Below are positions 1-22,076 of a stretch of DNA of 64,000 nucleotides, piece by piece. The notes under the pieces are model-generated. The model was not told the DNA's origin. It did no database searches and worked only from the letters and a program-made list of their open reading frames with translations. Where the stretch lies: the NCBI GenBank assembly GCA_947085095.1, contig CAMTVD010000004.1, forward strand, positions 1-64,000, in the 5' to 3' direction. Positions within the stretch are counted from its first letter, which is position 1; every line of letters begins with the position of its first letter. Source of the DNA: an uncultured Thermus sp. (GTDB taxonomy: Bacteria > Deinococcota > Deinococci > Deinococcales > Thermaceae). The position numbers were made by a program, and so were the translations under genes.

Positions 1-185
1 CTCTTACCCCACCGTTTCACCCTTACCCGCACCCCTTTCGGGGCCGCTGGCGGTCTCTTCTCTGTGGCACTTTCCGTCGGGTTACCCCGCCCAGCCGTTA
101 GCTGGCACCCTGCCCTATGGTGCCCGGACTTTCCTCACCCAGGGGAGAAGTCCCCTGGGCGCGACCGCGCGCCCGCCCTGGGGCA
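1..185 (-). ncRNA. rnpB: RNase P RNA (bacterial type A), 5' half; runs off the left edge of the window
   Basis: The minus strand reads ...GGUGAGGAAAGUCCGGGCACCAUAGGGCAGGGUGCCAGCUAACGGCUGGGCGGGGUAACCCGACGGAAAGUGCCACAGA...AAGGGUGAAACGGUGGGGUAAGAG, the universally conserved RNase P regions. Confidence 0.95.
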
Positions 186-191
186 CCTCCT

Positions 192-214
192 ATTCTACCA
201 CTTGCGTAAGTGTT
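192..214 (-). promoter_or_regulatory. Extended -10 promoter for rnpB with an overlapping short palindrome
   Basis: Minus strand TGGTAGAAT (TGn-TAGAAT) just upstream of the RNA 5' end; CACTT-GCGT-AAGTG inverted repeat at about 199-212. Confidence 0.6.
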
Positions 215-475
215 GCGGAGATCGCTCACGCTTCAGGTCAGAAACGGGGCTCTGGCCCGTGTGGGAGGGCGCTTCTAAGTGTGCACAGGGGGGAGAAAAC
301 CCGGCTTCAGAGGCCCGATAAGGCGGGGGGCGGCGGGGTCTAGTGGGGAACATTGGGGCGGGTGGCCGGAGGGCCTTTTAGGGGGTTCTGGGAGGCCAGA
401 AAGGCCTTCAAAGGCAGGGGTGGGAAAGGGTTTGGCCGGGGGCAGTCCCCCCGGCCGCAGCCTGGCCTCTTCAGA

Positions 476-769
476 TCAGCCAGCAAGCCTCACCTGCCTC
501 AGGAAGGCCTCCCGCTCCATCACGGGGACCCCAAGGGCCCGAAGGCCATCCGCCTTGGCCAGGACCTCCTCCACCAGGGCCCGGGCCGCCTCGGGGTCCT
601 CCCGGGCCAGCCTCATGAGGGCTTCAACGAAGATGGGCCACTCCTCGGCCTCGGCCATGAGGAAGAGCTCATCGTACCCCTCTGGGTCCTCTAAGAGCTC
701 CAGGTAGCCCTGCCAAAGCCAGCGGGCGTAGCCTAGAGCGTCTTGAGCCAGGAGGGTTTTCTCAACCAT
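476..769 (-). CDS. Small acidic helical protein, candidate immunity protein for the MuF C-terminal domain
   Basis: 97 aa (MVEKTLLAQD...), overlapping the 3' end of muF. Confidence 0.6.
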   Translation of the reverse strand: MVEKTLLAQDALGYARWLWQGYLELLEDPEGYDELFLMAEAEEWPIFVEALMRLAREDPEAARALVEEVLAKADGLRALGVPVMEREAFLRQVRLAG

Positions 770-1914
770 ATCGCGTCCTCGGGTATGGCGATGGCCTCTA
801 GGAAAGAAGCGGGGTAAGCCGTGACCAGAACGCCGCTTCTCAGCGAGTATACCACAAACCAGATGGGGCCTGCCCCCTTCCCACGAGCCCCCTCCGGAAC
901 AGCCCACTCCGTTCGGGCCAGAACGGCCACCACAGGGCCCTTCTCCCTTTGGTAGAGGACCACGGCCACCTCAGGGTCCGTAGCCCCCAGTCTGGCCATC
1001 TCCTCGTAGGCCTCCTCGGTCACGTGGGGAGCGAGCTGCCCTTCGGCGATGCGCTTGGCCAGGTGCACCTGGCGGCTCAGCGCCCGCTTCTGCCCTCCGG
1101 CGTACTCCCGATCCCGAGGGCGCACCTTGGTCAGATACGAGGGGAAGACCGCCACCGCCACCCTCCCCGCGGCCAGCATCCAGTCGGTGGGCCGGGGCTT
1201 CCGGGTGGTGAGGAGGTCCGCCAGGTAGCGGTCCGCCTCCGGCATCCCCCGCCCCAGGGCCCGGAGGTAGGCCCGCCAGAGCTCAGGGTGGTAGTCCCGG
1301 GGGTGGGGGCTCCACTCCTCCCGCCCCGGGGGGCGCCCGAAGCCCTCCTGGGGAGCGTGGGCGGGGGCCTCCTTCCAGGCCAGGCGCTCCCCCTCCTCCC
1401 GGGAGTAGGTGACGAGGGCCGTCCGGCAACCGAAGTGGAGGGGCGGGATGTGGCTGGCCCAGAAGGGGTGGTCCGCGGGCAGGACGATCCCCGCGAGGGG
1501 GGCGCAGATACGGGAGGTGCGCCCGTCCAGGACCACGGAGAGGCCCCAGTAGGGGCGGAGGTCCCGCACCCGCTCCGCCTCCCCGTACCGCCCCGCCCCG
1601 TAGGCCAGCTGCAGGTTGGTGCGGAAGACCGTTTCCAGCCGGTGGCGGCTCCCCTCCCCCCAGGCGTTCCGTACCCGCTCGGAGAGGGCCTTCTGGAACT
1701 CCCGGAAGGTGGTGCCCTGGGCCAGGGCCTCCTCCAGGGCGTCCATCACCTCCTGCACCATGTCCAGGGCGGCCAGGCCCGAGACCCAGGAGGCCCGCCT
1801 CCGGGCCTCCTGGGAGAGGGCCCGGACCTCCTCCTCGGGGAGGGCCAGGCGGCGGGCGAACCAGCGGAGGGCCCGCTCCGGCTTTAGGGGGTCGGGCTCA
1901 ACCGTCCAGGCCAC
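733..1914 (-). CDS. Mu gpF-like head morphogenesis (MuF) protein with a C-terminal extension
   Basis: RLETVFRTNLQLAYGAGRY, DGRTS and PPLHFGCR MuF motifs; located directly downstream of the portal gene. Confidence 0.9.
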   Translation of the reverse strand: MAWTVEPDPLKPERALRWFARRLALPEEEVRALSQEARRRASWVSGLAALDMVQEVMDALEEALAQGTTFREFQKALSERVRNAWGEGSRHRLETVFRTNLQLAYGAGRYGEAERVRDLRPYWGLSVVLDGRTSRICAPLAGIVLPADHPFWASHIPPLHFGCRTALVTYSREEGERLAWKEAPAHAPQEGFGRPPGREEWSPHPRDYHPELWRAYLRALGRGMPEADRYLADLLTTRKPRPTDWMLAAGRVAVAVFPSYLTKVRPRDREYAGGQKRALSRQVHLAKRIAEGQLAPHVTEEAYEEMARLGATDPEVAVVLYQREKGPVVAVLARTEWAVPEGARGKGAGPIWFVVYSLRSGVLVTAYPASFLEAIAIPEDAIWLRKPSWLKTL

Positions 1915-3412
1915 TGTCCTGACGCTGGGCTAGCCTACCGGCGAGCTCCGAGAGGAGAAGGGCGGCGTCCAGGAGCTGGGCCAGCTCGTGGAAGGGGAGG
2001 TCCGGGTAGAGGGCCAGGAGCCGCCGCCTCAGGTCCTCGTAGTTCTCCGCCTCCTCAATGGCCCGGAGGAGGGCGGGAAGGCCCGGGGCCTCGGCCGCCT
2101 GCAGGAGGCGGTCCCCCAGGCGGTCCACGAAGGCCTGGCCCGCCACCAGCCCCCGGGCCCTGCGCTCCTGGGGGGCGAGGGCGGGGGCCACCACCCTCTC
2201 CCCCTCCTGGGGGGCGGGCACCCCGAACTCCTCCCGAAGCCAGGCCTCGGGCAGGGCGAGGCCCATGCCCATGAGGGCCTGCAGGACCCGGGCCCGGCTC
2301 TCCAGGTCCCGTTCCTCCTCCACCTCGGGCACGGGGTGGGGGGCCAGGTGGAGGAGCTCGGGGCCGAAGTTGAAGGCCACGAAGGGCTTTATGAGCCCTT
2401 CTCTGAGGGTCTTGGCCAGGGCCCGGGCGTCCGCCCGGAGGAGGTCTATCCTGACCCGTTCGTGCACCTTGGCCAGGGCGTAGCTCCCGCCGTCCCCTTC
2501 GCTGGCGGTGAGGGTCTGGCCCAGGACCGCCTGGGCCATCTCCCGGTTGCAGAGGCGGATGAGGCTCTCGTAGACCTGGGGGCCCTGACCCTTGGCCGCC
2601 TCCAGGATCTGGATCTCCGTGTCCTTGCTTATGACCCCGGCGGCGTCCGCCCCCAGGGAGCGCACCGCCTCCTCCAGCCTGCGCCGCTCCTCCTCCCCGG
2701 CGGCGGGGTCGTAGCGGCCGATGCGGTAGGGCTGGCCGTAGACCTCGGCGAAGGTCACCCAGTCCTTGAGGGCGTAGTGCTTGAACAGGTAGAGCCAGGC
2801 CACGCTCCGCATGAGCCCGGCCCGGGTAGGCAGACCCGAACGGGCCTTGTAGCGGTGCTCTATGGCGCCCCCGTAGGGGAAAGCCTCCCCCCGGGGATTC
2901 TCCCGGGTGGCCAGGAGGAAGCGGTCCTCCTCCGGCACATAGACCAGGGAGGCAGGGTGGACCCAGCGGAAGCGGGCGGGCCGCCAGACCTCCCCATCCC
3001 GCTCCCAGGCCACGGCCACCACGCTCACCCCCTGGGGGATGGCGGAGAGGAGGTCCAGCATGAGGTCCTCCAGGGGAAGGTCCCACCACACCGCCTCCAC
3101 CTGGGCCAGAACGCTCCGGGCCCGGCGGGAGGCCTCCGCGGGCTCCAGCCGCCAGTCCAGGCCGATCACCGCCTGCTTACGGGTCTGGAAGAGGCTGAAG
3201 AGGAGGGCGTCCCGCTCCTCCATCTGCTGGACGAGCTCCGCCTGCTCGGCGATATCCCCCTCGTCCGCCAGGCGCAGGATGCGGGCGAGGCGCTCCGGGG
3301 TGAGGCCCCGGGCGGGGTAGCTGGGCATGGGGGGTTCCAGGGCCAGGGCCCCCCGGGCCGCCCTGGGGGGCTCGCTGGGGATGGGGCGTCCGTACTGGTC
3401 CAGGATGGGCAT
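1898..3412 (-). CDS. Mu gp29-like portal protein (DUF935)
   Basis: N-terminal ILDQYGRP, plus DWVTFAEVYGQPYRIGRY and LGQTLT...GSYALAKVH motifs. Confidence 0.92.
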   Translation of the reverse strand: MPILDQYGRPIPSEPPRAARGALALEPPMPSYPARGLTPERLARILRLADEGDIAEQAELVQQMEERDALLFSLFQTRKQAVIGLDWRLEPAEASRRARSVLAQVEAVWWDLPLEDLMLDLLSAIPQGVSVVAVAWERDGEVWRPARFRWVHPASLVYVPEEDRFLLATRENPRGEAFPYGGAIEHRYKARSGLPTRAGLMRSVAWLYLFKHYALKDWVTFAEVYGQPYRIGRYDPAAGEEERRRLEEAVRSLGADAAGVISKDTEIQILEAAKGQGPQVYESLIRLCNREMAQAVLGQTLTASEGDGGSYALAKVHERVRIDLLRADARALAKTLREGLIKPFVAFNFGPELLHLAPHPVPEVEEERDLESRARVLQALMGMGLALPEAWLREEFGVPAPQEGERVVAPALAPQERRARGLVAGQAFVDRLGDRLLQAAEAPGLPALLRAIEEAENYEDLRRRLLALYPDLPFHELAQLLDAALLLSELAGRLAQRQDSGLDG

Positions 3413-4692
3413 CAGAAGGCTCCTTTCCAGCCGGCGAAGGGCCGCCGGACCACGCTCTTGTACTCCACGGGGCCCCTGCGGGTCTCGGCGGCGTGGAGGG
3501 CCAGGGCCAGGGCCCAGAAGCGGTCGGCGTGCCCCTTCTCACTGCGCTCGGCGTCGTAGCGGACGTTGCCCGCGGGGGTCACCACCCGCCTGACGCTGTG
3601 CAGGTCCTCCCGCAGGGCCCGGTCATCGGGAGGGATGCGCACCTTCCGGTCCTCAAAGAAGAGGCGGAGGCGCTGGGCCAGGTCCGCCTTCACCTCGGGG
3701 GTGAACTTCACCGGCTCCACCTTGTAGCCGAAGGCCCGGCGGGCGTTTTCCGCCAGCATCTCCCCCAGGCCCGTGGCATCCACGCAGGCCCGGCGCACCC
3801 GGGGCAGGATGGCGTGGAGGCGGGCCTCCTGCTCGGCGAAGGGCACCCGGTGCAGGGTCTCCAGGAGGCGCACCCAGTAGACGTCCCCCACCCGCTCCAG
3901 GACCACGAAGGCGGTGAGGTCCCGGTGCCGACCGACGTCCACCCCCAGGTAGGCCTGGTCCGGGTTCCAGGGCCCCCTGGGGTCCTCCCGGGCCTCGGCC
4001 TCCAGGATCAGGCTCCAGGGCAGGAAGGCCTCCTCGGCGGAGACGAACTCGCACAGGTACTCCTGCTGCCAGATGAGGTCGTCCGCCAGGCCCGCCCGGA
4101 GCTCCTCGGGATCCACGGGCAGGCCCTGGGCCACGGCGTCGTAGATGGTTACCTTGTGCCGGGACCAGATGGGGCCGCCCTTCTCCCAGAGCTCCCAGAA
4201 CTTCCCCCGGGGGCCGTTGGGGGTGCTCATGACCCGGATCCTCAGGTCCGGCCTCCGGGTGATGATGGGGTACATGGCCGCCCAGATGGCCTCGGAGTCC
4301 TGGTGGAAGGCGAACTCGTCCAGGACCACGTTCCCCGTGTAGCCCCGGGCCGTGCGGGGGTTGGCGGGAAGGAAGATGAGGCGGGAGAGGTTGGGCAAGC
4401 GGATCTCCAGCTGGGTTACGCTCTCGCTCCCCTCCAGGAAGCGGCTCTCCATGTACTCCATCACCTGCTTCATGGCCTCCAGGTGGGCCTTAACCTTCTC
4501 CGCCAGCTCCCGGCTCTGCCTCTCCCCGGCGGAGAGGAGCACCCAGGTGGAGCCCGTGCTCTCCACGGCGCCCAGGGCCGCCTCCGCGGCCAGGGCGAAG
4601 CTCTTCCCCGTCTGGCGGGACCAGAGGCCGATCTTGAAGCGGCTTTGGTCCCTCAGCCAGGCCCGCTGGTAGGGCAGGAGGTCATAGTCCAT
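3412..4692 (-). CDS. Terminase large subunit (Mu gp28-like)
   Basis: LLPYQ, SRQTGKS (Walker A), VVLDEFAF (Walker B), STPNG, GVDVGR and HADRFWA. Confidence 0.95.
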   Translation of the reverse strand: MDYDLLPYQRAWLRDQSRFKIGLWSRQTGKSFALAAEAALGAVESTGSTWVLLSAGERQSRELAEKVKAHLEAMKQVMEYMESRFLEGSESVTQLEIRLPNLSRLIFLPANPRTARGYTGNVVLDEFAFHQDSEAIWAAMYPIITRRPDLRIRVMSTPNGPRGKFWELWEKGGPIWSRHKVTIYDAVAQGLPVDPEELRAGLADDLIWQQEYLCEFVSAEEAFLPWSLILEAEAREDPRGPWNPDQAYLGVDVGRHRDLTAFVVLERVGDVYWVRLLETLHRVPFAEQEARLHAILPRVRRACVDATGLGEMLAENARRAFGYKVEPVKFTPEVKADLAQRLRLFFEDRKVRIPPDDRALREDLHSVRRVVTPAGNVRYDAERSEKGHADRFWALALALHAAETRRGPVEYKSVVRRPFAGWKGAF

Positions 4693-5236
4693 AGAGGTCT
4701 CGCTTGATAGCCTCAATCACCTCGGGCTCAATCTCCCGGACCTTGAGGGCCCGCTCCACCTTCTCCGCCGCCTCCTGCCTGAGGGAGCGGTCTATCCGCT
4801 CCAGGGAGAGGGCCACCCGGGCCGCCTCCAAGCCCAACCGCACCACCTTCTCCGGGTCCACCTCCGCCTCCCCCAGCTCCAGGCCATCCAGGTAGCGGAG
4901 GGCCTTGTGCACCACGATGTTGGCCAGGGCGGCGGCGTAGGAAAGGCGCTTCCCCGTGGCCTCCTCCACCGCCTCCACCAGCCTTTCCATCCGCAGGACC
5001 TCTTCAAGGGCGGGGGCCAGGTGGCGGGCGTGGCGGCGGACGGAGCTGGGGGAAACCCCGTGCCCCCGGGCCTGGAGCCAGGCGGCGATCCCCTCCAGGG
5101 CGTAGGGCCGGCCGTCCTCCTCCGTCTCCTCCCCCAGGATCATGGCGTCTACCCGCTCCCGCACCTCCTCGGGCAGGGAGCAGACCCGGCAGCGGCGGTC
5201 CCGCCTGTAGGCGAACCCCTTCACGGCCTCACCCAC
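4682..5236 (-). CDS. Putative terminase small subunit (Mu gp27/DUF3486-like)
   Basis: Helical protein with an HTH-like VSPSSVRRH segment, immediately upstream of terL. Confidence 0.7.
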   Translation of the reverse strand: MGEAVKGFAYRRDRRCRVCSLPEEVRERVDAMILGEETEEDGRPYALEGIAAWLQARGHGVSPSSVRRHARHLAPALEEVLRMERLVEAVEEATGKRLSYAAALANIVVHKALRYLDGLELGEAEVDPEKVVRLGLEAARVALSLERIDRSLRQEAAEKVERALKVREIEPEVIEAIKRDLYGL

Positions 5237-5406
5237 CCCACCAGGGCCACCACCAAAAGGGCCGCGAGGAGCCAGCGCTCGGCCCTGCGGTGGCGGCGCT
5301 CCTCCTCCAGCTCGTGCCGAAGATGGCGAATCTCGGCCAGGATCTCCTCCTGGTGCCGGCGGACGGCCACAGAGAGGGCGTGAATCTCGTCCCGAATGTC
5401 CATCAC
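5221..5406 (-). CDS. Small coiled-coil protein with a C-terminal TM segment
   Basis: 61 aa, translationally coupled to both neighbours. Confidence 0.6.
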   Translation of the reverse strand: MMDIRDEIHALSVAVRRHQEEILAEIRHLRHELEEERRHRRAERWLLAALLVVALVGWVRP

Positions 5407-5729: not shown

Positions 5730-5738
5730 CGCACCTCC

Positions 5739-5999: not shown

Positions 6000-6019
6000 G
6001 CTCCACCTAAACGCTTTCG

Positions 6020-6092
6020 CCCCCTGGGCTTCCCCAGGGGGCACTTACCCAACCTTAGCCCTAGTGTACCTCAGGGGGTGGGGGGGTGTCTA
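6020..6092 (-). promoter_or_regulatory. Leftward late promoter plus leader hairpin (copy 1 of a 71-bp inverted repeat)
   Basis: TAGACA-N18-TACACT followed by the CCCCCTGGG-GAAG-CCCAGGGGG hairpin; 68/71 identical to 14580-14650 in the opposite orientation. Confidence 0.75.
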
Positions 6093-10563: not shown

Positions 10564-10894
10564 CGTTGTCCTCCTCGAGGGCTTTGTTCGTCTCCTCTAA
10601 CGACGGGACCAGCCTTACCAGCACTCGCCGTATGACTTGGCTGTAGCGGCCGGTACTCACATGTATCTCAGCGCGCACCTCTAACACTCTCACGTGAGCG
10701 ATATCACCCATCACAGATGAGGGGCGGAGGTCCCGGATGGCCACGAAGGTCCCCTCCTGCATCCAGTGCAGATCCTTCGGAATGATGGCGATGGGGTTCT
10801 TTGGCCATGTACCGTCCTCGGTGAGGTAGATGTACGTGGCCTCGTAGCGGATGGGAGGGACGGCCCCCTCTATTTGGGAGAAGGGACGCTTCAC
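10547..10894 (-). CDS. Hypothetical protein (lower GC)
   Basis: 115 aa, coupled to the ATPase stop; acidic DNDELPF C-terminus. Confidence 0.6.
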   Translation of the reverse strand: MKRPFSQIEGAVPPIRYEATYIYLTEDGTWPKNPIAIIPKDLHWMQEGTFVAIRDLRPSSVMGDIAHVRVLEVRAEIHVSTGRYSQVIRRVLVRLVPSLEETNKALEEDNDELPF

Positions 10895-11661
10895 GCCGCA
10901 CCCCCTGCCAGGTTCAACCGGGAAGCCAGGCGCCGCACGTGAGCCGGGGCAATGGCCCCCTTGGGAATGCCGTTGAGCTCCACCAGGGTGTCCATCTGCT
11001 TGATGAGGCGGACCACGTCCCGGAGGATCCCGCCCGTGAGCCGGTGAACCTCTTCCAGCACGGGGCGGGCGTAGCCTGAACCCTCGTAGATGCTCACCAG
11101 CTCAGCGGCGGGCACAGGCCCTATCTGGGCCACGGTGCCGATGCGGGACTCAATGTCCCGGTAGCGGCGGATCTGGGGGGCGTACTCATCGGTGGTGATG
11201 AGGACGAAGGTGGAGCCCGTCTCGTCCGCTAGGTACTTCGCCGTCTCCAGGGTGGGGCGGTCCATGAGCTGGGCCTCGTCCACGAAGACCACCCGGGGCC
11301 GGAGGAGAAGGGCGTCCCGGATCATGCTGAGGAGGACCCGGAAGTGCTTGTGCCGGGTGATGCGAAGCTCCACCGCCAGGTCTTCCAGGAATGCCGCCGG
11401 GCTGTAGGAGGGCTGGGCCCGCACCCAGGGGGCCTCGTGCTCCATCGCGTAGTAGCGGCAGGTCAGGGTCTTCCCCACCCCAGCAGGGCCCACCACCAGG
11501 GCGAACGGGAAGCGCTCCTGGGCGGCCAGGGCCAGGTGGCCCAGAAGGGCCCGGGCCCCGGCGGTGGGGATGAACCCGTTGCGGGGGTCCCTCAGCTCCG
11601 CCTCGGAGACGTAACCACCGAAAACTTCGTCAATGAGCCTGCTGATCTCCGCTTCCGTCAT
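10891..11661 (-). CDS. MuB/TnsC-like AAA+ transposition ATPase
   Basis: GPAGVGKT (Walker A) and VFVDEAQ (Walker B); follows the transposase. Confidence 0.9.
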   Translation of the reverse strand: MTEAEISRLIDEVFGGYVSEAELRDPRNGFIPTAGARALLGHLALAAQERFPFALVVGPAGVGKTLTCRYYAMEHEAPWVRAQPSYSPAAFLEDLAVELRITRHKHFRVLLSMIRDALLLRPRVVFVDEAQLMDRPTLETAKYLADETGSTFVLITTDEYAPQIRRYRDIESRIGTVAQIGPVPAAELVSIYEGSGYARPVLEEVHRLTGGILRDVVRLIKQMDTLVELNGIPKGAIAPAHVRRLASRLNLAGGAA

Positions 11662-13619: not shown

Positions 13620-13833
13620 CGTCCTCCTCCAAAAGCTCCTCAACCGGAACGTCCAATGCCTTGGCGATCTTGTGAACGGTGGCGATAGACGGGTTGGGTC
13701 TGCGCCCTTGCAGGAGCATGACCACATGGCCGTGGCTCAACCCGGCCGCCTTGGCCAACCCGTACTGGGATAGCCCGCGCTCCTGCAAAAGCTGCTTCAT
13801 TCTGTGAAGGTTTAGCCGGGTCTTTACTCTCAT
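13600..13833 (-). CDS. Cro/Ner-like XRE HTH regulator
   Basis: GLSQYGLAKAAGLSHGHVVMLLQGRRPNPSIATVHKIAKALDV. Confidence 0.88.
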   Translation of the reverse strand: MRVKTRLNLHRMKQLLQERGLSQYGLAKAAGLSHGHVVMLLQGRRPNPSIATVHKIAKALDVPVEELLEEDDVLATR

Positions 13834-13909: not shown

Positions 13910-14581
13910 ATGAATAAGGAAAGGGAGGTTGACAGAGTGCGCGACCTCCAGGGGCCCTTCGCCAGGGAGATCCTGGCGAAGATGAAGGAAAAGGGCTTCC
14001 GGAAGCTGGAAGAGTTCGCCGACTACTACGACATCGGCAGGACCACGGTTTATAGCCTGGTCATCGGCCGGAAGGTGGGGGACAAGTACATCAAGCCCAG
14101 CTTGGACACCCTTACCAAGCTGTCAGTTGCGCTGGAAATCCCTGTGGAAAAGCTACTTGAGAGGCTCTATCCCGAGGGCTCCTTCCTCACCCGCAAAGAA
14201 GTAGGAGTGCCCATCCTCGGCTACGTGGGCGGCGGCCCCGCCCAGCTGGAGGAGCTGGAGGACCGCACCGTCCCCGTGCGGGTGAAGGGGGACGCCTCGC
14301 ACCTCGTGGCCTTCCGCGTGCGGGGCAACAGCATGTGCGCCGGGAAGCGGCCCATCTGCCACGGGGACATCATTGTCGTGGACACCCGGGACAAGGGCCA
14401 CCCCGGGGCCATCGTGGTGGCGCGGCTCAACGGACACGAGTACGTGGTCAAGAAGATGGGGCCGGACGGTACCCTGTACTCCACCAACCCCGAGGAGGGG
14501 AACGGCCCGCCGGTCATCCGCAGGGACGAGGTGGCGGAGATCGTGGGGCGGGTGGTGGAGGTGCGGAGCCGGTTGGATTGA
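13910..14581 (+). CDS. CI/LexA-like repressor (XRE HTH plus S24 peptidase)
   Basis: VPILGYVGGG cleavage region, VRGNSM catalytic Ser and VVKK Lys; divergent from cro. Confidence 0.9.
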   Translation: MNKEREVDRVRDLQGPFAREILAKMKEKGFRKLEEFADYYDIGRTTVYSLVIGRKVGDKYIKPSLDTLTKLSVALEIPVEKLLERLYPEGSFLTRKEVGVPILGYVGGGPAQLEELEDRTVPVRVKGDASHLVAFRVRGNSMCAGKRPICHGDIIVVDTRDKGHPGAIVVARLNGHEYVVKKMGPDGTLYSTNPEEGNGPPVIRRDEVAEIVGRVVEVRSRLD

Positions 14582-14650
14582 CACCCCCCCACCCCCTGTG
14601 GTACCCTGGGGCTAAGGTTGGGTAAGTGCCCCCTGGGGAAGCCCAGGGGG
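14578..14650 (+). promoter_or_regulatory. Rightward late promoter plus leader hairpin (copy 2 of the 71-bp inverted repeat)
   Basis: TTGACA-N18-TACCCT with extended TG, and the same hairpin as 6020-6042. Confidence 0.78.
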
Positions 14651-14954: not shown

Positions 14955-15034
14955 GGCCCCCCGCTGGCCCCTATCCCCGGAGACGGCGAGGCTGGAGAAC
15001 CGAGCCTACTGGGGCGTGGTCCTGAGGAGGCCCT

Positions 15035-16054
15035 ATGCCGAGTTTGACCGGCTTCCCCAAGAATACCGATACCTCCACCCCGACCTTTTCCGGCACGCTG
15101 CGCGCCGCCTTGGGGGACGCCCCTGAGCGCATCCCCCTCCACCCCTTCGGGGAGTTCGTGGGGAACGGCACCCTCTTCCTCTACGACGAGGAGAGCCTCC
15201 AGGCGGCCCTGCGGGACCTCGCCGAGCGGGGTGTGCCCTGGGTTTTAGACTTCCACCACCAGACGGTGCGGGTGGAGGAGGGGCAGGCGGGGGAGGCCCC
15301 GGCGGCGGGGTTCATCACCGGATTGGAGGTGGAGGACGGCGTCGTCTACGGCCTGGTGGAGTGGTCGGAGACGGGCCGGGAGCGGGTGAGCCGGGGGGAG
15401 TACGCCTACGTGAGCCCCGTCTTCTACTACGACCCCCGGCCGGACGAGCTGGGCAGGCACCGGGTGCTGGGGTACCACTCCTTCGCCCTCACCAACAACC
15501 CTGGCATCCGGATGCAGAGGCGGATTGAAGCGGAGGCGGACATGCTGGAAAGGTTGAGGCAGGCCCTGGGGCTCCCGCCCCAGGCCACAGAGGAGGAGGC
15601 CTTCCAGGCCCTGGAGAGGACCCTGGCCGAGGCCCGGGTGGGCCGGGTGGTCCTGGAGCTGGGCCTGGGGGCCGAGGACGAAACCGAGCTCAAGGCCAGG
15701 CTCCTCCGGCTCCTGGCGGCCCAGGACGCCCTGGCGGAGCTGGAGCGCACCCGGGCGGAGCTGGAGGCCATCCGGGCCCAGGCCCGGGAGGAGAAGGCCC
15801 AGGCCCTGGTGCGGGCCGCCCTGGAGGAGGGGCGCATCCTGCCCCACCAGCGGGAGTTCTGGCTGGCCCAGGCCCGGGCGGACCTGGAGGCGGCCCGGAA
15901 GGCCCTGGAGGGGATGCCCCGGCTGGTGCCCACGGAGCTCCCCAAGCCCAAGGAGCCCCCGAAGGAGCCCCTGGAGGCCGAAGACCCCCTCCGCAGGTAC
16001 GCCCAGATCTTCCGGGTCTCCGAGGAGGCTCTGAGGCGGTTTGGAGGTGAGTGA
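15035..16054 (+). CDS. Mu gpI-like prohead protease with a C-terminal scaffold
   Basis: VLDFHHQT, APAAG, VEWS, EYAYVSPVF and ALTNNP motifs. Confidence 0.92.
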   Translation: MPSLTGFPKNTDTSTPTFSGTLRAALGDAPERIPLHPFGEFVGNGTLFLYDEESLQAALRDLAERGVPWVLDFHHQTVRVEEGQAGEAPAAGFITGLEVEDGVVYGLVEWSETGRERVSRGEYAYVSPVFYYDPRPDELGRHRVLGYHSFALTNNPGIRMQRRIEAEADMLERLRQALGLPPQATEEEAFQALERTLAEARVGRVVLELGLGAEDETELKARLLRLLAAQDALAELERTRAELEAIRAQAREEKAQALVRAALEEGRILPHQREFWLAQARADLEAARKALEGMPRLVPTELPKPKEPPKEPLEAEDPLRRYAQIFRVSEEALRRFGGE

Positions 16055-16437
16055 TGTTTGACACTGAGCGCTGGGCGGAAGAGTACCTCATCCCCCTCCC
16101 GGTGAAGGCGGGCGCTGTCATCCGGCAGGGGGCGCTGGTCATGGTCTCGGGGGGCTACGCCGAGGAGGCTAGCCCGGGTACCGGGAAGATCGCCCTGGGG
16201 GTGGCCCAGGAGACCGTGGACAACTCCGGGGGCGCGAACGGGGCCAAACAGGTCCTGGTGCGCCGGGGGGTGTTCCGTTTTGAGAACGACCCCGCCGACC
16301 CCGTGGGCCTCACGGAGCTGGGGAAAGACGTCTACGCCACCGGGCCCAACACCGTGGGCAAGGCGGCCACGGGCCGCTCCAAGGCGGGGCGGGCCCTGCA
16401 AGTGGACGGAGACTACGTTTGGGTGGAGGTGTGGTAA
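16051..16437 (+). CDS. Capsid decoration/cement-like protein
   Basis: Beta-rich 128-aa protein between the protease and the major capsid gene. Confidence 0.65.
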   Translation: MMFDTERWAEEYLIPLPVKAGAVIRQGALVMVSGGYAEEASPGTGKIALGVAQETVDNSGGANGAKQVLVRRGVFRFENDPADPVGLTELGKDVYATGPNTVGKAATGRSKAGRALQVDGDYVWVEVW

Positions 16438-17340
16438 ATGATTCTGAACCGCGATCAGCTCAACGCCCTCAGCCGGACCCTCAAGGCCTTGGTTTTTGAG
16501 GCAAAAGAGGGGTACACCCCCCTCTGGCCCAAACTGGCCTTGGAGGTCCGGTCCAATGGCCGGGCCAACTACTACGCCTGGCTGGAGAACATGCCCGCCA
16601 TGCGCCTCTGGGAAGGAGAGCGGAAGATCCAGAACCTCACCGCCGAGACCTTCCCCATCGTCAACGCGGACTGGGAGGCCACCTTCGCCGTTTCCCGCAC
16701 CGACGTGGAGGACGACCAGATGGACCTCATCCGCATCACCGCCCTGCAGTACGCCCGGCGGTGGGCGGAGCACGATGACTACCTCATCGCCGACCTCCTC
16801 CGCACCGGGTTCCAGCAGAAGGCCTACGACGGGCGACCCTTCTTCGGCCCCCACACCGTGGGGCGGAAAACGTTCCAAAATGGGTCCAACGCCCCTCTGA
16901 CCCGTGAGGCCTTCCGCAACGCCCTGAGCCAGATGCGGAAGCTCACCGACGCCCGGGGCTACCCCCTGGGCTTCTTCCTGCAGAAGCCCATCTACCTGGT
17001 GGTGGGGCCCGGGCTGGAGAGCACCGCCTACGAGATCGTGGGGGTGCCTACCCTCCCCACGGGCGGGGCCAACCCCGACTACGGGAAGGCGGAGATCCTG
17101 GTGAGCCCCTGGTTGGTGGAAGACTACGAGACCTACTGGTTCCTGGTGGACGGGGCCCAGGCCATCAAACCCTTCGTGCTCCAGAGGCGGAGCCAGCCCG
17201 AGTGGATCGTCAAGGACGACCCCGCCATCAGCGACGAGGTCTTCAAGCGGAACCTCTTCATCTACGGGGTGTACGAGCGCAAGGCCGCTGCCCCCCTCTT
17301 CTGGCAGCTGGCCTACGGCTCCACCGGCACGGGTAGCTGA
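16438..17340 (+). CDS. Mu gpT-like major capsid protein
   Basis: YAWLENMPAMRLWEGER, YDGRPFF, LVVGPGLE, WFLVD..KPF and FWQLAYGSTG. Confidence 0.93.
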   Translation: MILNRDQLNALSRTLKALVFEAKEGYTPLWPKLALEVRSNGRANYYAWLENMPAMRLWEGERKIQNLTAETFPIVNADWEATFAVSRTDVEDDQMDLIRITALQYARRWAEHDDYLIADLLRTGFQQKAYDGRPFFGPHTVGRKTFQNGSNAPLTREAFRNALSQMRKLTDARGYPLGFFLQKPIYLVVGPGLESTAYEIVGVPTLPTGGANPDYGKAEILVSPWLVEDYETYWFLVDGAQAIKPFVLQRRSQPEWIVKDDPAISDEVFKRNLFIYGVYERKAAAPLFWQLAYGSTGTGS

Positions 17341-17777
17341 TGATCGGCCTGGATGACCTCCGGCAGACCCTCCCCGAGGGGGAGCTCCTCTACCTGGTGG
17401 ACGACGAGGGGGCGGGGGAGCTCACCCCCCAGGCCCTGGCCCGGGCCGAGGAGGCCCTGCGCCAGGCCTGGGGGGAGGTGGAAAGCTACCTGGCCCAGCG
17501 CTACCCCCTCCCCCTCCCCGCCCTGCCGGAGGTCCTGAAGGCCAAAGCCCTGGACATCGCCGTCTACCGCCTCTTCCTCAGGAAGGGCATCCGCCCCGGC
17601 ACCGCGGACGAGGCCGTGCGGGACCGCTACCGGGACGCCGTGGCCTTCCTCCGGGACGTGGCCGTGGGGCGGGCCTCCCTCCCCCTACCCCCGGCCTCCG
17701 CCCCGGCCCGGCCCCTGGGCGGGGCGAAGGTCCGGGGAAAGAGGATCTTCAGTCGGGAGAGCCTGGAGGACTTCTGA
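17340..17777 (+). CDS. Mu gp36/J-like head-tail connector (DUF1320)
   Basis: YLAQRYPLPL...DIAVYRL...RYRDAVAFLRDVAVG. Confidence 0.9.
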   Translation: MIGLDDLRQTLPEGELLYLVDDEGAGELTPQALARAEEALRQAWGEVESYLAQRYPLPLPALPEVLKAKALDIAVYRLFLRKGIRPGTADEAVRDRYRDAVAFLRDVAVGRASLPLPPASAPARPLGGAKVRGKRIFSRESLEDF

Positions 17778-18211
17778 TGGGCGTGCGCCTCAAAGGAGAC
17801 TGGAGGGAGCTCGGCGAGAAGCTCCACCACCTGGCCGGCGGGGTGCCCCGCCGGGTGAAGGAGGCGATCGCCGAGGGGGTGAAGAGCCGCACCCTGCGGC
17901 GCTTTGAAGTGAGCCGGGCCCCCGACGGCTCCCCCTGGCCCCCCCTCTCCCCCGTCACCCTGGCCCGCACGGGGAAGGACCGGAAGCCCCTCTTCCTCAC
18001 GGGCAGGCTGCGGAACTCCATCGCCTGGACCGTGCGGGGGAATGCCATCATCGTGGGCACCAACCTGGTCTACGCCCGCATCCACCAGTACGGGGGGTAC
18101 GCGGGCCGGGGGCGGAAGGTGCGCATCCCCGCCCGCCCCTACCTGGGAATCACCGAGGAGGACCGCCGGGAGGCGGAAAGCCTCCTCAAGGAGTGGCTTA
18201 GAGGGCGATGA
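17777..18211 (+). CDS. Mu gpG / P2 gpS-like virion morphogenesis protein
   Basis: PDGSPWPPLS, TGRLRNSI, VGTNLVYARIHQYGG and IPARPYLG. Confidence 0.92.
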   Translation: MGVRLKGDWRELGEKLHHLAGGVPRRVKEAIAEGVKSRTLRRFEVSRAPDGSPWPPLSPVTLARTGKDRKPLFLTGRLRNSIAWTVRGNAIIVGTNLVYARIHQYGGYAGRGRKVRIPARPYLGITEEDRREAESLLKEWLRGR

Positions 18212-18693
18212 CCCGGCCCGTGGTGGAGTACGTCCGCAGGGGGCTCAGGGAGGTGGGCCTTCCCGAGACCCGGATTCTGGTGAACCGCACCCGGGAGGAG
18301 GCCTACCGCACCGCCCCCGCGGCCCTGGTCCGCCTGGTGGGGGGGAGCCTGCGGCGGGACGGGAGCCGGGTGGAGGCGGGGCCCGAGCGCACCCTGAGGC
18401 GGCTCTACACCGGGACCCTCCGGGCCCGGGTGGAGCTCTACGCCCGGGGCCCGGAGGAGCTGGACCGCATGCTGGTGGGCTTCCTCCTCTACCTATGGAG
18501 CACCCCCCTCACCGCGGGAGGGGCCTACCACGCCAAGCTGGACGACCTGAGCCTGGTCTACACGGACGAGGAGGGGGTTCTGCTCACGGAGAACGCCCTG
18601 GCCCTGGAGATCCCCTTCGGGGTGGAGGTCCTGGAAGGGGTGGCCTGGGTGCCCGTGGAGGTGGAGGTGGAGGGCCTTGTCGAGGAGGTCTAG
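18208..18693 (+). CDS. Putative tail completion/terminator protein
   Basis: 161 aa, positioned between gpG and the sheath gene. Confidence 0.55.
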   Translation: MTRPVVEYVRRGLREVGLPETRILVNRTREEAYRTAPAALVRLVGGSLRRDGSRVEAGPERTLRRLYTGTLRARVELYARGPEELDRMLVGFLLYLWSTPLTAGGAYHAKLDDLSLVYTDEEGVLLTENALALEIPFGVEVLEGVAWVPVEVEVEGLVEEV

Positions 18694-18694
18694 G

Positions 18695-18892
18695 ATGTCC
18701 AAGGAAAAGGAGGCGCAGGAGGAGGTCCAGCTCCCCACCGTGGAGGAGCTGGCCGAGGAGCTCAAGGTGGAGCCCTGGGCCCTGGCGGGCCTCAGGGTGC
18801 GCATGGGCTGGGCCGTGGGGGCCCGGGTCTCCCGGGGCCAGTTTGAGCGGGCCCTGCGGGAGTTCCTCACCGGGCCCACGGCCAGGGAGTAG
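18695..18892 (+). CDS. Small phage protein
   Basis: MSKEKEAQEE..., RBS GAGGAGG. Confidence 0.6.
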   Translation: MSKEKEAQEEVQLPTVEELAEELKVEPWALAGLRVRMGWAVGARVSRGQFERALREFLTGPTARE

Positions 18893-18902
18893 GAGGTGAA
18901 GC

Positions 18903-20324
18903 ATGGCTAGACTGCCGGGCGTGTACCCGGAGATTCAGGACGGGGGCCTGGGCATCGTGCCCCCCAGCGGGGAGGGGCAACGGGTGGTGGTGGGGGTCTC
19001 CAGCCAGGGGCCCCTGAACCAGGTACTGGGCCTCGCCGACCTCTCCCAGGTGCCGGGCCTTCTGGGGACGGGCCCCCTGGCCAGGGCGGTGGCGGACCAG
19101 CTGGCCTACGGTGGGGGGCAGGTCTACGCGGTGCGGGCCCAGGCGGACATCGCGGGCACCGTGACGGCGGACCCGGGGAACCCCGCCTCCCCCGCCATCA
19201 CCCTCAGCGGAAGCCCCCTGGACCGCTACGACCTCGTGGTCCGCATCGTGCGGGGCGGGGCGGTGGGGACGGCCACCTTCGTCTACAGCCTGGACGGGGG
19301 GGACACGGAGAGCCTGGAGATCACCACCGCCGCCAGCGTGGCCCTGCCGGGAACGGGGCTCACCCTCAACTTCGCCGCGGGGACCTACACGGCGGGGGCG
19401 GTCTACCGCTTCGCCGCCACCGCCCCCCGGGCCAGCGTCTCCAGCGTCCAGCAGGCGGTGCGGGAGGCCCTGAACGCCCCCATCCTCTACGAGTACATCC
19501 AGATCGCCCAGCCCACGGACGCCGCCATGTGGGCGGCCCTGGACGCCCTGGCCCTGGAGGCGGAGAACCAGTACCGCTACATCTGGTTCCTCACGGAGAC
19601 CGTGGCCCCGGGGGCGGACGTGGACGCCTGGGTGAACGCCCGCCTGGCGGAGAAGGCGAACTTTAGCTCCAAGCGGGTGATGATCGTGGCCGCCTGGGGG
19701 GAGGTGGTGGACACCCTCACGGGCCGGCTGGAGGTCCAGTCCCTGGCCTCCCGCATCGGGGCCCGCATCAGCCGCAACAAGCCCCACGTCTCCCCCGCCT
19801 GGGTGCAGCAAGGGCCCCTCCCCGGGGTGGTGACCGTGGCCCCCTTCGTGCAGACGAGCTTCGGCAAGAAGTCCTTGTTCAACAACGCCCACGCCCTGGC
19901 CCTGGACACCGCGGGCTTCGCCACCGTCTACCGCCTCATCGGCCGGGACGGGGTCTTCGTGGTGGAGGGGCGTATGGCCGCCGCTCCCACCTCGGACTAC
20001 CGGACCGTCCAGAACCGCCGGGTCATGGACAAGGCGGTCACCCAGGTGCGCCAGGCCCTCCTGGACTTCGTCCAGTGGCACGTGGACCCCACGGACCTCA
20101 ACGCCTCCCTGGCCTCCCTCATCGCCCGGGCCAACACCCCCCTCCGGGTCATGCAGGCCGCGGGGGAGATCGCCCGGGGCCGGGTGGTCATCCCCCCGGG
20201 ACAGGACATCCTGGCCACCAGCAGGCTCCGCCTCCAGGTGCGCATCGTCCCCCTGGGCTACCTGAGGGAGATTGAGCTGGACATCGGCTTTGAGAACCCC
20301 TTCTTGCAGGGCACCAAGGCGTGA
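18903..20324 (+). CDS. Contractile tail sheath-like protein (DUF2586-like)
   Basis: N-terminal LPGVYPEIQDGGLG; SDYRTVQNRRVMDKA; C-terminal VRIVPLGYLREI. Confidence 0.85.
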   Translation: MARLPGVYPEIQDGGLGIVPPSGEGQRVVVGVSSQGPLNQVLGLADLSQVPGLLGTGPLARAVADQLAYGGGQVYAVRAQADIAGTVTADPGNPASPAITLSGSPLDRYDLVVRIVRGGAVGTATFVYSLDGGDTESLEITTAASVALPGTGLTLNFAAGTYTAGAVYRFAATAPRASVSSVQQAVREALNAPILYEYIQIAQPTDAAMWAALDALALEAENQYRYIWFLTETVAPGADVDAWVNARLAEKANFSSKRVMIVAAWGEVVDTLTGRLEVQSLASRIGARISRNKPHVSPAWVQQGPLPGVVTVAPFVQTSFGKKSLFNNAHALALDTAGFATVYRLIGRDGVFVVEGRMAAAPTSDYRTVQNRRVMDKAVTQVRQALLDFVQWHVDPTDLNASLASLIARANTPLRVMQAAGEIARGRVVIPPGQDILATSRLRLQVRIVPLGYLREIELDIGFENPFLQGTKA

Positions 20325-20335
20325 GGAGGTGAAGC

Positions 20336-20749
20336 ATGCCCATTAACGGCCGGTACTACGACTGGGAGCACATCTCCATCCAGGTGAAGGGCATCCCCCT
20401 GGCCGACGTCCTCTCCATTGACTACGAGGACTCGGAGAAGGTGAACGCCATCTTCGGCAAGGGCCGCACCCCCAGGGGCTACACCAAGGGGAACTACGAG
20501 GGCTCGGGCAAGCTCACCCTCCTCCGGGAGGAGTACGACCGGGTGCGGGCCGCCGCCCCCGAGGGCAACCCCCTCAAGCTGGAGCCCTTTGACATCGTGG
20601 TGAGCTACGAGAAGGAGGGGGCCACGGCCACCGACACCCTCAAGGACTGCCTCTTCACCAAGCGCTCCTTCGGGGGCGTGGAGCAGGACACGGAGAAGGT
20701 CACCGTGGAGCTGGAGTTCATCATCCTGGGCGGCGTGGAGCACGGCTAG
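20336..20749 (+). CDS. Tail tube protein
   Basis: INGRYYDW...G.GRTPRGYTKGNYE; follows the sheath gene. Confidence 0.8.
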   Translation: MPINGRYYDWEHISIQVKGIPLADVLSIDYEDSEKVNAIFGKGRTPRGYTKGNYEGSGKLTLLREEYDRVRAAAPEGNPLKLEPFDIVVSYEKEGATATDTLKDCLFTKRSFGGVEQDTEKVTVELEFIILGGVEHG

Positions 20750-20758
20750 GAGGCGTAG

Positions 20759-21007
20759 ATGAAGGAAGTGCCCTTCTACACCCTGGAGCACGGCGGGAAG
20801 ACCTACGGCTTCAAGCGGCCCAGCGTGGACCAGCTCAACCGCTTCCTGGCCAGGGTGGCCCGGGCCCCCCTCTCCAGCGCCCTGGAGTTCACCCGGGAGC
20901 TCTCGGAGGACCCCGAGGCCTGGGCCGCCGCCACCCACGAGAAGCCCGGGCTGGCCCTGCAGGCGGCCAACGGCCTCATGGAGGCCCTGGGTTTCCCGAC
21001 CGCCTGA
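20759..21007 (+). CDS. Tail assembly chaperone (G-like)
   Basis: 82 aa after the tube gene; ends at the G-GGT-TTC slippery site. Confidence 0.7.
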   Translation: MKEVPFYTLEHGGKTYGFKRPSVDQLNRFLARVARAPLSSALEFTRELSEDPEAWAAATHEKPGLALQAANGLMEALGFPTA

Positions 21008-21165
21008 GGGAGGTGGAGGCGGAGCCCCCTCCCCTGGCCCAGTACGCGGCCCTCATCCGCCACTGGCTTCATCGCGAACCCCCGGAGGACCTCGAGGCCT
21101 TCCTGGAGCTCACCCAGCAGGCCCTCTGGCTGGAGAAGCGCTACCTGAGAACCCCCCGGGAGTGA
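20989..21165 (+). CDS. -1 frameshift extension of the tail chaperone (GT-like)
   Basis: GGGTTTC heptamer; the -1 frame reads GFPDRLREVEAEPPPLAQYAALIRHWLHREPPEDLEAFLELTQQALWLEKRYLRTPRE* and has no start codon of its own. Confidence 0.7.
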   Translation, partial: GFPDRLREVEAEPPPLAQYAALIRHWLHREPPEDLEAFLELTQQALWLEKRYLRTPRE

Positions 21166-21181
21166 GCCCCGGGGGGTCTTT

Positions 21182-21364
21182 ATGGGCGAAAAGGACCTGC
21201 TCTACAGGGGTTTGAAGGACCTGGCCAGGCGGTGCCTGGAGGAGGGGAGGCCCCTCGCCTACTTCCTCCTGGCCCGAGAGCTGTGCCAGAACGAGGCCGA
21301 GGAGAGGTACGCCAAGCGGGCTTTCAGGGAGGCCCTAAGAGCGGCAAAGAAAAAGGCGCGCTAG
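21182..21364 (+). CDS. Small hypothetical protein
   Basis: 60-aa ORF with Thermus-like codon use. Confidence 0.45.
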   Translation: MGEKDLLYRGLKDLARRCLEEGRPLAYFLLARELCQNEAEERYAKRAFREALRAAKKKAR

Positions 21365-21995
21365 TATTCTAGCCGACTTCATGAGAAATGGATTTACATA
21401 CTGGGCAACAACCTTTAGCTTTTAGACTGCACACCGTGACGGTGTGCAGTCAATATGCAATGTGTGAATATTACCCTTCTGAAGGGGCTTAATGGGGATT
21501 TCAACCTTGCGCTACGACGGTGTGCACGCTGTGCAGTGGCCACCCCATATTTGGGGTCACGGTGTGCATGCACACCTCCGATAGTGCATAAACGCCTTTT
21601 CCGCCCTTCTGGTGCCGCTTTCCGCCTCTCATCAACCTTTAGCACCACCTTATCAAGTGAAGCGGCCTTTAGCCCGTTCCTAATCGCCTCTTTTCTACTT
21701 GCCTAAAGCATGACTCGTTCTGACCTAAAGCATAATCGGACCCGATAAAGGATTATCTCGGTCAGCCCCTTTTTTATCGGCTCAATCAACTGTGCACAGC
21801 GTGTTTTTCCCGCTGGCAACGGACTGACCGCCACTTTCTGACAAAAAGCATGACGCGCCCTACCCTCCGCTTCCCGCCGCTTTTCGCCGTTCGCCCGCCG
21901 CTTTTAGTCGCGTCTAGAACCACATTCCTTCGCTTTCCGCCGTTTTAAGTCGCATCTAAGCCAACTTGCATAGAGCATGCTCCATTACAATTACA
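21365..21995. repeat. AT-richer right-terminal region with palindromes and repeated putative transposase-binding sites
   Basis: GACTGCACACCGT-G-ACGGTGTGCAGTC (21425-21451); CCTAAAGCAT twice (21702, 21724); imperfect 23-bp direct repeat at 21895 and 21937; terminal ATTACA. Confidence 0.7.
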
Positions 21996-22040
21996 AGAGA
22001 TGACCGCGTAAAACAGAACCCGGCTTACGCCCTGTCCTGG
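21996..22040 (+). pseudogene. rnpB: Orphaned 3' end of an RNase P RNA gene
   Basis: AGAGATGACCGCGTAAAACAGAACCCGGCTTACGCCCTGTCCTGG contains the conserved ACAGAACCCGGCUUA motif and is complementary to the P2, P4 and P1 5' strands of the copy at 1-185. Confidence 0.88.
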
Positions 22041-22042
22041 AT

Positions 22043-22076
22043 CCCCCGAGCCTTGGCTCGGGGGCTCTCTCTTTTT
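22043..22076 (+). terminator. Intrinsic terminator of the original rnpB
   Basis: CCCCCGAGCC-TT-GGCTCGGGGG hairpin followed by a pyrimidine/T tract. Confidence 0.75.

Follow-up and report, generated by a model that had tools for sequence, protein, structure and literature searches.

A Mu-like Thermus prophage that splits the host's only rnpB gene and carries a complete replacement

A prophage inside the RNase P RNA gene

The window analysed here comprises positions 1–64000 of contig CAMTVD010000004.1 (C4) from a metagenome-derived bin of an uncultured Thermus sp. (GCA_947085095.1, here G000; 41 contigs, 2.08 Mb, 93% completeness). This genome has two rnpB genes, which encode the RNA of RNase P: a complete one inside a Mu-like prophage, made up of the starts of contigs C4 and C36, and that of the host, which is split between contig C16 and positions 21996–22042 of the window, upstream of mraZ. 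rnpB is normally single-copy and essential. Very probably, the prophage has split the only rnpB of its host, brings a full replacement and is directed to a targeted window upstream of mraZ.

The clearest view of the split was given by the closed chromosome of a related lysogen (G041), where the break points of the host rnpB are ...GAGCCCAC/TGTCACGCG... and ...CTATTACA/CCCACCGCC...: on one side ...GGTAAGAGCCCAC is followed by the phage end TGTCACGCG, on the far side ...CTCTATTACA is followed by CCCACCGCC, and CCCAC is duplicated. The prophage between these junctions is 34,522 bp long and contains a complete internal rnpB (272 bits). Perfect 5-bp duplications were found in all three testable Thermus cases, namely, CCCAC in G041, ATAAC in G060 and CTGGA in G061, and the split of the host gene by a phage, proposed in an earlier sequence-only reading of the window, was confirmed in the same three genomes. 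Outside Thermus, AACAG (G022) and CATAC (G002) were duplicated, and the decayed prophage of G014 showed no clean duplication at its junctions. Relatives have elements that begin with TG and end with CA. Their second end (E2) is of the TGTCACGC type, not of the TGTAA type that the sequence-only reading had expected.

In the present genome, only the CA end (21994–21995) was seen. This phage end (E1), ...CATTACAATTACA, finishes at 21995, where the host gene resumes at reference position 321 of 368; the junction had been described correctly, with the displaced fragment measuring 47–48 nt instead of 45. The stretch 21996–22048 matches C36 153–204 at 86.8%. The proposed pairing of the fragment with P2 and P4 of the rnpB at the start of the window also holds and is non-discriminating, the strands being conserved in 32 of 32 rnpB genes of the genus. 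Because the E1 word TGTAATTGTAATG is absent elsewhere in the genome, there is no inverted E1 copy between the minus-strand rnpB and the phage genes, as had been noted. The terminal word of E1 is tandemly duplicated at 4 of 11 junctions, over 6 nt here (ATTACAATTACA, 21983–21995), 8 nt in G046, 19 nt in IMG/VR locus L083 and approximately 45 nt in L078.

Position 1 of the window is a contig end of C4. The minus-strand rnpB recognised there is real (RF00010 match at 1–180), and the window holds only its 5' half, which continues on C36. C4 and C16 start with the identical first 141 nt of rnpB and part afterwards; other contig ends in the bin also overlap by 141 nt, and the shared starts are the signature of a branch in a k=141 assembly graph. 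Over positions 1–201, the two contigs match at 94%. C16 begins with the 5' half of the host rnpB, followed by the host genes rpmE, an HSP20 gene and miaA. C36 begins with positions 160–367 of the rnpB model, overlaps the end of C4 by 14 nt, and continues with a methylase-Mrr fusion, an M23 peptidase, the tape measure and baseplate genes; the tail genes absent from the window are exactly those on C36. The P1 duplex formed by the C4 5' end and the C36 3' end has an energy of −41.9 kcal/mol, compared with −27.7 kcal/mol for the duplex with the host fragment 22020–22047, and the C4 half of rnpB therefore belongs with the C36 half. The Logan contigs over the left part of C36 have their first base at C36:112 in each of the four sequencing runs that contain this DNA. 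With k=31, such a start implies a branch at position 142 and thus a second rnpB copy that shares the core and then departs. Leftward extension has accordingly yielded the complete minus-strand rnpB by way of C36 and the 5' part of the host gene on C16. The phage rnpB, which the sequence-only reading had put at the left edge of the phage, lies in its middle, with at least 14 kb of further phage DNA, tail genes included, beyond it.

Copy number and gene order in Thermus lysogens

Relatives were identified by a transposase search, which found the family in 16 of 68 genomes of the taxonomic family and in 5 of 32 genomes of the genus (this one counted). The prophage adjoins mraZ in all five Thermus lysogens, each with an internal rnpB, and in none of them (0/5) does it lie elsewhere. 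A scan of genome contigs with the MuF protein returned only two distant alphaproteobacterial loci.

The RNase P search of genomes that the sequence-only reading had recommended gave matches to RF00010 in 32 of 32 genomes of the genus, with exactly one full-length copy in each of the other 31. In all four relative lysogens (99% completeness), this sole full-length rnpB is the phage copy, and the host gene is in two pieces; the supply of a replacement gene by the phage, also part of that reading, was thereby borne out. It follows from the copy count that a lysogen would be unable to lose its prophage by deletion, which would make the prophage indispensable. The remaining 27 genomes of the genus are phage-free. 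In line with the expected contiguity, 24 of the 27 have an intact rnpB with mraZ in its flank, and rpmE and mraZ were both seen in the flanks of 21.

Gene order is the same in all five Thermus lysogens. From mraZ, it runs through the operon from the chaperone to the protease, the repressor, the block from the transposase to MuF, orf143 and rnpB; beyond rnpB follow the methylase or another cargo gene, M23, the tape measure, the baseplate genes and rpmE. The rpmE (L31) gene was seen on the far side in G041, G060 and G061, and in the present genome it is on C16. G041, G060 and G061 each show the gene order, the internal full-length rnpB and the split host gene on a single contig. In G046, the gene order, the internal rnpB and the E1 junction are on one contig, which ends inside the phage; the part from M23 to rpmE lies beyond it, and the 5' part of the host rnpB is on another contig. 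Phage proteins are 60–90% identical between lysogen genomes.

Two further Thermus loci are unusual. In the phage-free genome G048 (contig C3, rnpB at 83738–84107), rnpB and approximately 20 nt of its promoter are inverted between mraZ and rpmE, with flanks collinear with those of relatives. This layout may represent a lysogen reduced to the phage's rnpB or a simple local inversion; whichever sequences are compared, homology stops at the gene borders. Additionally, in G057 (contig C7, 22001–42000), an intact rnpB and mraZ are separated by a ~2.4-kb relic. It consists of a methylase 70% identical to that of the phage, orf143 and a 44-aa MuF fragment, with neither a transposase nor a second rnpB. 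The relic resembles the remains of a prophage from this family, whose host would have retained or recovered an rnpB in the host orientation.

The phage-borne rnpB

In the present genome, the phage rnpB was matched in two pieces, model positions 1–173 (132.7 bits) on C4 and 160–367 (118.5 bits) at C36 1–199, both above the gathering score of RF00010 (Rfam, bacterial RNase P class A; 100 bits). The phage copies of the relatives (G041, G060, G061 and G046) score 254.6–272.2 bits over model positions 1–367. The gene sits between the MuF/orf143 genes and the methylase and is oriented opposite to the host gene. Its distance is ~22 kb to one phage end and 12–13 kb to the other, with the tape measure, baseplate and fibre genes beyond it. 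Its homology to the region upstream of the host rnpB stops at about position 201. An own promoter, as proposed in the sequence-only reading, is represented by an extended −10-like element, TGGTAGAAT.

The phage and host rnpB of this genome are identical in their shared core and differ towards the termini (95.6% identity over the 5' 180 nt and 87% over the 3' 46 nt), which suggests exchange between the two copies. The phage rnpB genes of G041 and G061 are identical at 372 of 372 positions, whereas they are only 91.1% and 89.4% identical to the reconstructed genes of their own hosts. Judged from these comparisons, the rnpB cargo travels with the phage. An internal full rnpB was also present in four of five IMG/VR provirus records tested; the fifth, with a sheath identity of only 66%, was without one. 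Since the phage gene is the sole full-length copy in four genomes, it is presumably expressed and functional, with catalysis of tRNA 5' processing as its probable role.

A blastn search of a phage collection with the phage-borne Thermus rnpB gave rnpB-like stretches in 10 records. These include MT835553.1 (23882–24181; 84% of the query), where the stretch lies in the middle of an unannotated 33.6-kb gut phage contig, and MW495066.1 (115322–115518), the 274-kb cyanophage Microcystis phage MaAM05. Cargo resembling rnpB may be more widespread among phages.

Insertion sites and target choice

E1 junctions were taken from five genomes and from those 6 of 24 related IMG/VR loci that reach the junction, and they were placed on a 368-nt reference rnpB. 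All six of these loci have the phage end joined to the 3' part of rnpB. The 11 junctions lie at positions 184 (twice), 197, 272, 282, 311, 321 (this window), 323 (twice), 328 and 332. There are thus nine distinct insertion points within one 150-nt stretch (184–332) of the 3' half of rnpB, all in a single orientation, which attests to repeated independent insertions and supports a dedicated target. Near-random insertion, the hallmark of Mu, was not found: all Thermus sites are in rnpB, and five lysogens of other genera are in the rnpB-mraZ spacer, one of which (G023) was placed by its E2-type end after rnpB only.

In the genus designated g5 (G014, G022, G023 and G034), the E2-type end is found 100–166 nt after an intact rnpB (100 nt in G023). 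In G002, of genus g2, E2 lies 545 nt after rnpB, and E1 is beside mraZ. The other phage end is likewise next to mraZ in G014, G022 and G034; the mraZ of G023 is beyond the stretch fetched. In G014, G022 and G002, RF00010 finds one rnpB per genome, outside the phage, which has no rnpB cargo. Since relatives without the cargo occupy this locus too, its use as a target is older than the rnpB cargo. For the same reason, targeting guided by homology to the cargo rnpB was dropped as an explanation.

The distance from E1 to the mraZ start codon is 210, 214 and 250 nt in G014, G022 and G034 (g5), 396 nt in G002 (g2), and 224, 232, 233, 283, 358 and 369 nt in the Thermus cases G046, L079, G000, G060, G061 and G041, respectively. 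With the rnpB 3' end as zero point, the insertion sites are scattered between about −185 and +545; with the mraZ ATG as zero point, they are confined to −210 to −396. The dedicated target proposed in the sequence-only reading thus stands, and it is better described as a window 210–396 bp upstream of mraZ than as rnpB. The rnpB-mraZ spacer is about 150–190 nt long in Thermus and ranges from 177 to >1,200 nt in g5; owing to the short spacer in Thermus, the targeted stretch upstream of mraZ falls inside rnpB. GTGGG-type repeats are present upstream of mraZ, at about 22083–22130 of the window.

From these positions, we infer that target choice is anchored on the mraZ side and judge an rnpB anchor to be less likely than an mraZ anchor. 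The balance tips slightly towards a family that aims upstream of mraZ, outside the GTGGG array, and that hits rnpB only in Thermus, where the rnpB cargo would be a compensating acquisition. More tentatively, targeting might be tethered: a factor bound at the mraZ promoter, such as a complex of MraZ with its operator at the GTGGG repeats, would aim the MuB-like ATPase, insertion would occur in one orientation 60–250 bp upstream of the GTGGG array, and the Thermus branch, by carrying rnpB, would have turned an otherwise lethal hit to its benefit, as the cargo would make the prophage undeletable and move rnpB between species. If tethering of this kind does occur, loci like that of G048 would mark hosts that have permanently adopted a phage-derived RNase P RNA.

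In G002, an extra copy of the subterminal CTGACAAA(T/C)AGC(G/A/T)TGA-type motif lies outside the element, between the phage end and mraZ (34770–34910); an earlier insertion into this locus may have left it behind.

Evaluation of alternative explanations

In the explanation that we favour, window positions 1–21995, C36 and a missing short contig would form one Mu-like transposable prophage of ~35 kb. Integration by a DDE transposase and a MuB-like ATPase would produce the TG...CA ends and the 5-bp target duplication, and insertions would be made in one orientation within a ~200-bp window, 210–400 bp upstream of the mraZ start codon. In Thermus, this target window would coincide with the 3' half of the single-copy, essential rnpB, and integration would destroy the gene; the complete rnpB carried by the Thermus phage lineage would then become the only RNase P RNA of the cell.

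Several observations weigh against this explanation or leave parts of it uncovered. The second phage end (E2) and the AGAGA-flanked junction predicted by the sequence-only reading (...AGAGA/TG...) are not in this assembly, and the E2 junction was not seen among the Logan contigs on C36, for which 24 of 338 loose ends are listed and rare forms are invisible. C36 stops in a repeat that is common to a second prophage on C3. The missing phage piece of ~2 kb would fall below the size cut of the bin, in which the smallest contig has at least 5.8 kb. A two-hexamer consensus promoter scan found 0 sites in 1–800, which leaves the proposed promoter of the phage rnpB with its −10-like part, and a terminator scan found none after the phage rnpB on C36. 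The kin genomes are not fully independent, some IMG/VR loci may share strains with genomes, and the junction of locus L093 is that of G041. In G001, a relative with a transposase 42% identical (tblastn match) is 321 kb away from rnpB and has no mraZ in its vicinity; insertion sequence (IS) elements disrupt its left side. Four g5 genomes that encode the transposase have the phage on a contig separate from that of rnpB. In addition, Pfam revealed no TniQ/TnsD-like domain in 19 proteins scanned (E<=0.01).

An assembly artefact or a chimeric bin, in which misjoined contigs or mixed strains would simulate an rnpB that no phage carries, has very little probability. It would draw on the fragmentation and incompleteness of the metagenome bin, on the contig breaks inside rnpB and on head and tail modules that are out of order compared with Thermus phage Riverbug and Meiothermus phage MMP17. 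However, the order, the internal rnpB and the split host gene recur on single contigs in G041 (closed), G060 and G061, and a single contig of G046 combines the order and the internal rnpB with the E1 junction. Four IMG/VR provirus records also have the internal rnpB, and a separate copy of a ~75-bp promoter-like repeat accompanies every relocated operon. The sequence-only reading had allowed for a later rearrangement or an assembly error; an artefact of assembly is contradicted by the closed genome of G041. It is equally hard to credit a single ancient insertion, by which a domesticated prophage would have been inherited vertically with no ongoing targeting. The locus and orientation are the same in five of five Thermus genomes, and protein identities of 60–90% could fit long vertical descent, but the nine junction positions, the intact phage termini and the matching 5-bp duplications at different sites do not, nor does an identical phage rnpB in two hosts with differing rnpB genes of their own. 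Moreover, 27 of the 32 genomes of the genus are phage-free, 24 of them with mraZ next to an intact rnpB.

Survivorship would require no targeting at all: insertion would be random, as in Mu, and only insertions in rnpB would persist as loss-proof lysogens. The sole rnpB lies in the phage in four lysogens, where deletion would thus be lethal, and the relative in G001 does sit elsewhere. We nevertheless consider survivorship improbable, because unprotected, cargo-less relatives are still found between rnpB and mraZ (G014, G022, G034 and G002), with the E2-type end of G023 at 100 nt after rnpB; because all nine Thermus sites are in the 3' half of rnpB in one orientation, though any disruption would protect equally; and because none of the five Thermus genomes with this transposase has the phage elsewhere. 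The target could also be rnpB itself, as DNA, through its transcription or as an RNA-DNA hybrid, with cargo-less phages landing beside the gene because hits inside are lethal. All sites are indeed in rnpB or <=545 nt downstream of it, and the adjacency of rnpB and mraZ in 24 of 27 phage-free Thermus genomes and in 11 of 25 g5 genomes with an rnpB match makes the two anchors hard to separate. Yet the sites spread more widely from the rnpB 3' end than from the mraZ ATG, neither the 5' half of rnpB nor the spacer behind it contains any of the nine Thermus sites, and G002 has ~500 nt with reverse-strand coding potential between rnpB and the insertion. On this evidence, rnpB as the target is an unlikely alternative to a target set from the mraZ side.

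Gene content of the prophage

The features of the window that bear on the prophage and its junction are listed in Table 1. The MuB-like ATPase gene comes directly after the transposase gene. In Pfam, the transposase matched HTH_23/HTH_17 and rve, the latter at 27.7 bits, which is under the Pfam cut-off of 32.6. No integrase family was found in 42 phage ORFs scanned. The early region contains two HTH proteins (270 and 174 aa) and several uncharacterised genes, and no candidate selector of targets was recognised. The second late operon occupies the same relocated position in G041, G060, G061, G046 and G002. Both copies of AAAGC[AG]TGA in the 64-kb window, at 21705 and 21845, are within the subterminal region.

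Table 1 Features of the prophage and its mraZ-side junction in the window
Feature	Position	Strand	Basis
5' half of phage RNase P RNA gene, cut by contig end	1..180	-	RF00010 model 1-173 of 367, 132.7 bits
Extended -10-like TGGTAGAAT upstream of phage rnpB	192..200	-	Read directly; homologous to host copy's TGCTAGAAT
orf143, conserved beside phage rnpB	476..907	-	36-44% identity in G041, G060, G061, G046
MuF-like minor head protein	733..1914	-	phrog_220, 1.3e-47
Portal protein	1898..3412	-	phrog_113, 3.3e-130
Terminase large subunit (3412-4716) and small subunit (4682-5236)	3412..5236	-	Phage protein family match
Repeat copy r1 (71-77-bp repeat), upstream of terminase-portal-MuF operon	6020..6090	-	Sequence comparison
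MuB/TniB-like AAA+ transposition ATPase	10891..11661	-	phrog_296, 5.9e-35; AAA_22, 6.4e-16; weak TniB match
Mu-type DDE transposase, HTH domains and rve core	11658..13727	-	phrog_310, 1.7e-45
LexA/CI-like repressor (S24 peptidase)	13910..14581	+	Protein family and Pfam matches
Repeat copy r2, upstream of protease-capsid-sheath operon	14580..14650	+	Sequence comparison
Second late operon: head protease, major head protein, adaptor, neck, sheath (18903-20324), tube, chaperone	15035..21007	+	
Subterminal non-coding region and phage end E1, ending ...ATTACA	21008..21995	+	E1 conserved in 11 loci
Displaced 3' end of host rnpB, from reference position 321 of 368 (47-48 nt)	21996..22042	+	
Host rnpB terminator hairpin and T-run	22043..22076	+	Read directly
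mraZ, ATG 233 nt after phage end	22229..22663	+	Pfam MraZ, 3.6e-33

A third copy of the 71–77-bp repeat is on C36 (3303–3379, + strand). The three copies are 94–96% alike, and each lies upstream of, and faces, one late operon. They consist of a promoter-like part, TAGACA/TTGACA...TAC(A/C)CT, followed by a conserved leader with the hairpin CCCCCTGGG-GAAG-CCCAGGGGG; a copy is also found upstream of the protease operon in G041 and G060. The repeat is probably a late promoter with a regulatory leader hairpin, as suggested by its composition. An origin of the odd gene order by inversion between these repeats was considered and dropped, because the order is kept in five other genomes and each repeat faces its own operon.

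Beside the phage rnpB, C36 157–3219 contains cargo comprising the fusion of an N6/N4 DNA methylase with an Mrr-type nuclease domain, an uncharacterised gene of 306 aa and, on the opposite strand, a DUF488 gene. Relatives vary in their cargo, with the methylase in G041 and G061 and orf306/orf159 in G060 and G046. At its other end, C36 shares the tail-fibre-end region with the second prophage on C3: both C36 (11827–12251) and C3 (28313–29438) end in a similar gene of the tail-fibre region, 74–76% identical to the G041 homologue. Logan contigs over this part of C36 showed 14 substitutions clustered at 12062–12110 and a 144-nt skip at 11827–11972. A match to the c-di-GMP-II-GAG riboswitch at 58794–58881 (+) of the window (44.5 bits; gathering score 40) is unrelated to rnpB.

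Significance and comparison with known systems

The finding is real, is no artefact and is anticipated in print only superficially. The genome paper on Thermus aquaticus Y51MC23 describes a ~36-kb 'prophage 2' with numerous Mu-like annotations. The element lies between mraZ and the gene for L31 and includes, close to the latter, a diversity-generating retroelement; a similar prophage with the same two neighbours was reported in Thermus sp. 2.9 (PMC4605624). By its published description, prophage 2 occupies the same locus as the prophage studied here. In the sections of PMC4605624 available here, 'RNase P' and 'rnpB' are not mentioned, and the split gene, the cargo and the marks of transposition are unreported. 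The available part of a report on a phage attachment site in ffs gives tRNA, tmRNA and csRNA genes, not rnpB, as the known RNA-gene targets (PMC12540744), and in the accessible portion of PMC2516327 rnpB appears only as a phylogenetic marker. A full-text search, with subscription journals and supplements outside its scope, returned no published account of a phage-split or phage-carried rnpB in Thermus. INPHARED contained no member of this transposase family, the best matches covering 11–20% of the protein.

Here, a virus disables an essential single-copy ribozyme gene and substitutes its own, which would bind the survival of the host to the prophage. A core RNA gene has moved between species in this way, the phage copies being 100% identical in two hosts whose own genes differ. 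In addition, a Mu-type transposase is strongly specific for region and orientation without a recognisable Tn7-type selector, which opens the aiming of MuB-like proteins to direct experiments in a naturally competent thermophile amenable to genetics. An insertion system that is thermostable, targeted and able to take a large cargo would be of practical interest as well. Genome annotation is also affected: what pipelines identify as 'rnpB' in these Thermus lysogens belongs to the prophage, and two rnpB fragments go unnoticed at the prophage borders hitherto described, mraZ and the L31 gene.

Three kinds of elements invite comparison. Integrase elements enter genes for tRNA, tmRNA or proteins and, by means of a duplicated 3' part, make the interrupted gene whole again, as e14 does in icd. 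They have in common with the present family that a needed gene is interrupted, that its loss is supplied and that a displaced fragment is left at the far junction. By contrast, no integrase is found here, the junctions differ between lysogens with only 5 bp in common, and the replacement is a whole gene on the opposite strand that would act in trans instead of by fusion. Tn7 targets attTn7 through TnsD at glmS, and other cases of tethered targeting are the res-site hunters and the Ty elements at Pol III genes. A transposase with an AAA+ regulator, orientation-specific insertion and a conserved housekeeping locus are shared with Tn7. Unlike in Tn7, the insertion points of this family are spread over about 190 bp with no fixed distance, no TniQ/TnsD-like domain was detected, and the Thermus site is no safe harbour, being inside an essential gene.

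The closest kin are the Mu-like transposable phages, e.g., D3112/B3 and BcepMu; Mu itself picks its targets almost at random. Shared with these phages are the DDE transposase and its AAA+ partner, the TG...CA termini, the 5-bp duplication, a divergent repressor beside the transposase, and a Mu-type portal, MuF, protease and head genes. In contrast to Mu, this family targets one ~200-bp window in one orientation, has one late operon relocated and inverted beside the repressor end, and carries an essential host RNA gene. The prophage is thus in kind a Mu-like transposable phage, and it departs from Mu in its choice of target and in the full replacement of the essential gene that it destroys.

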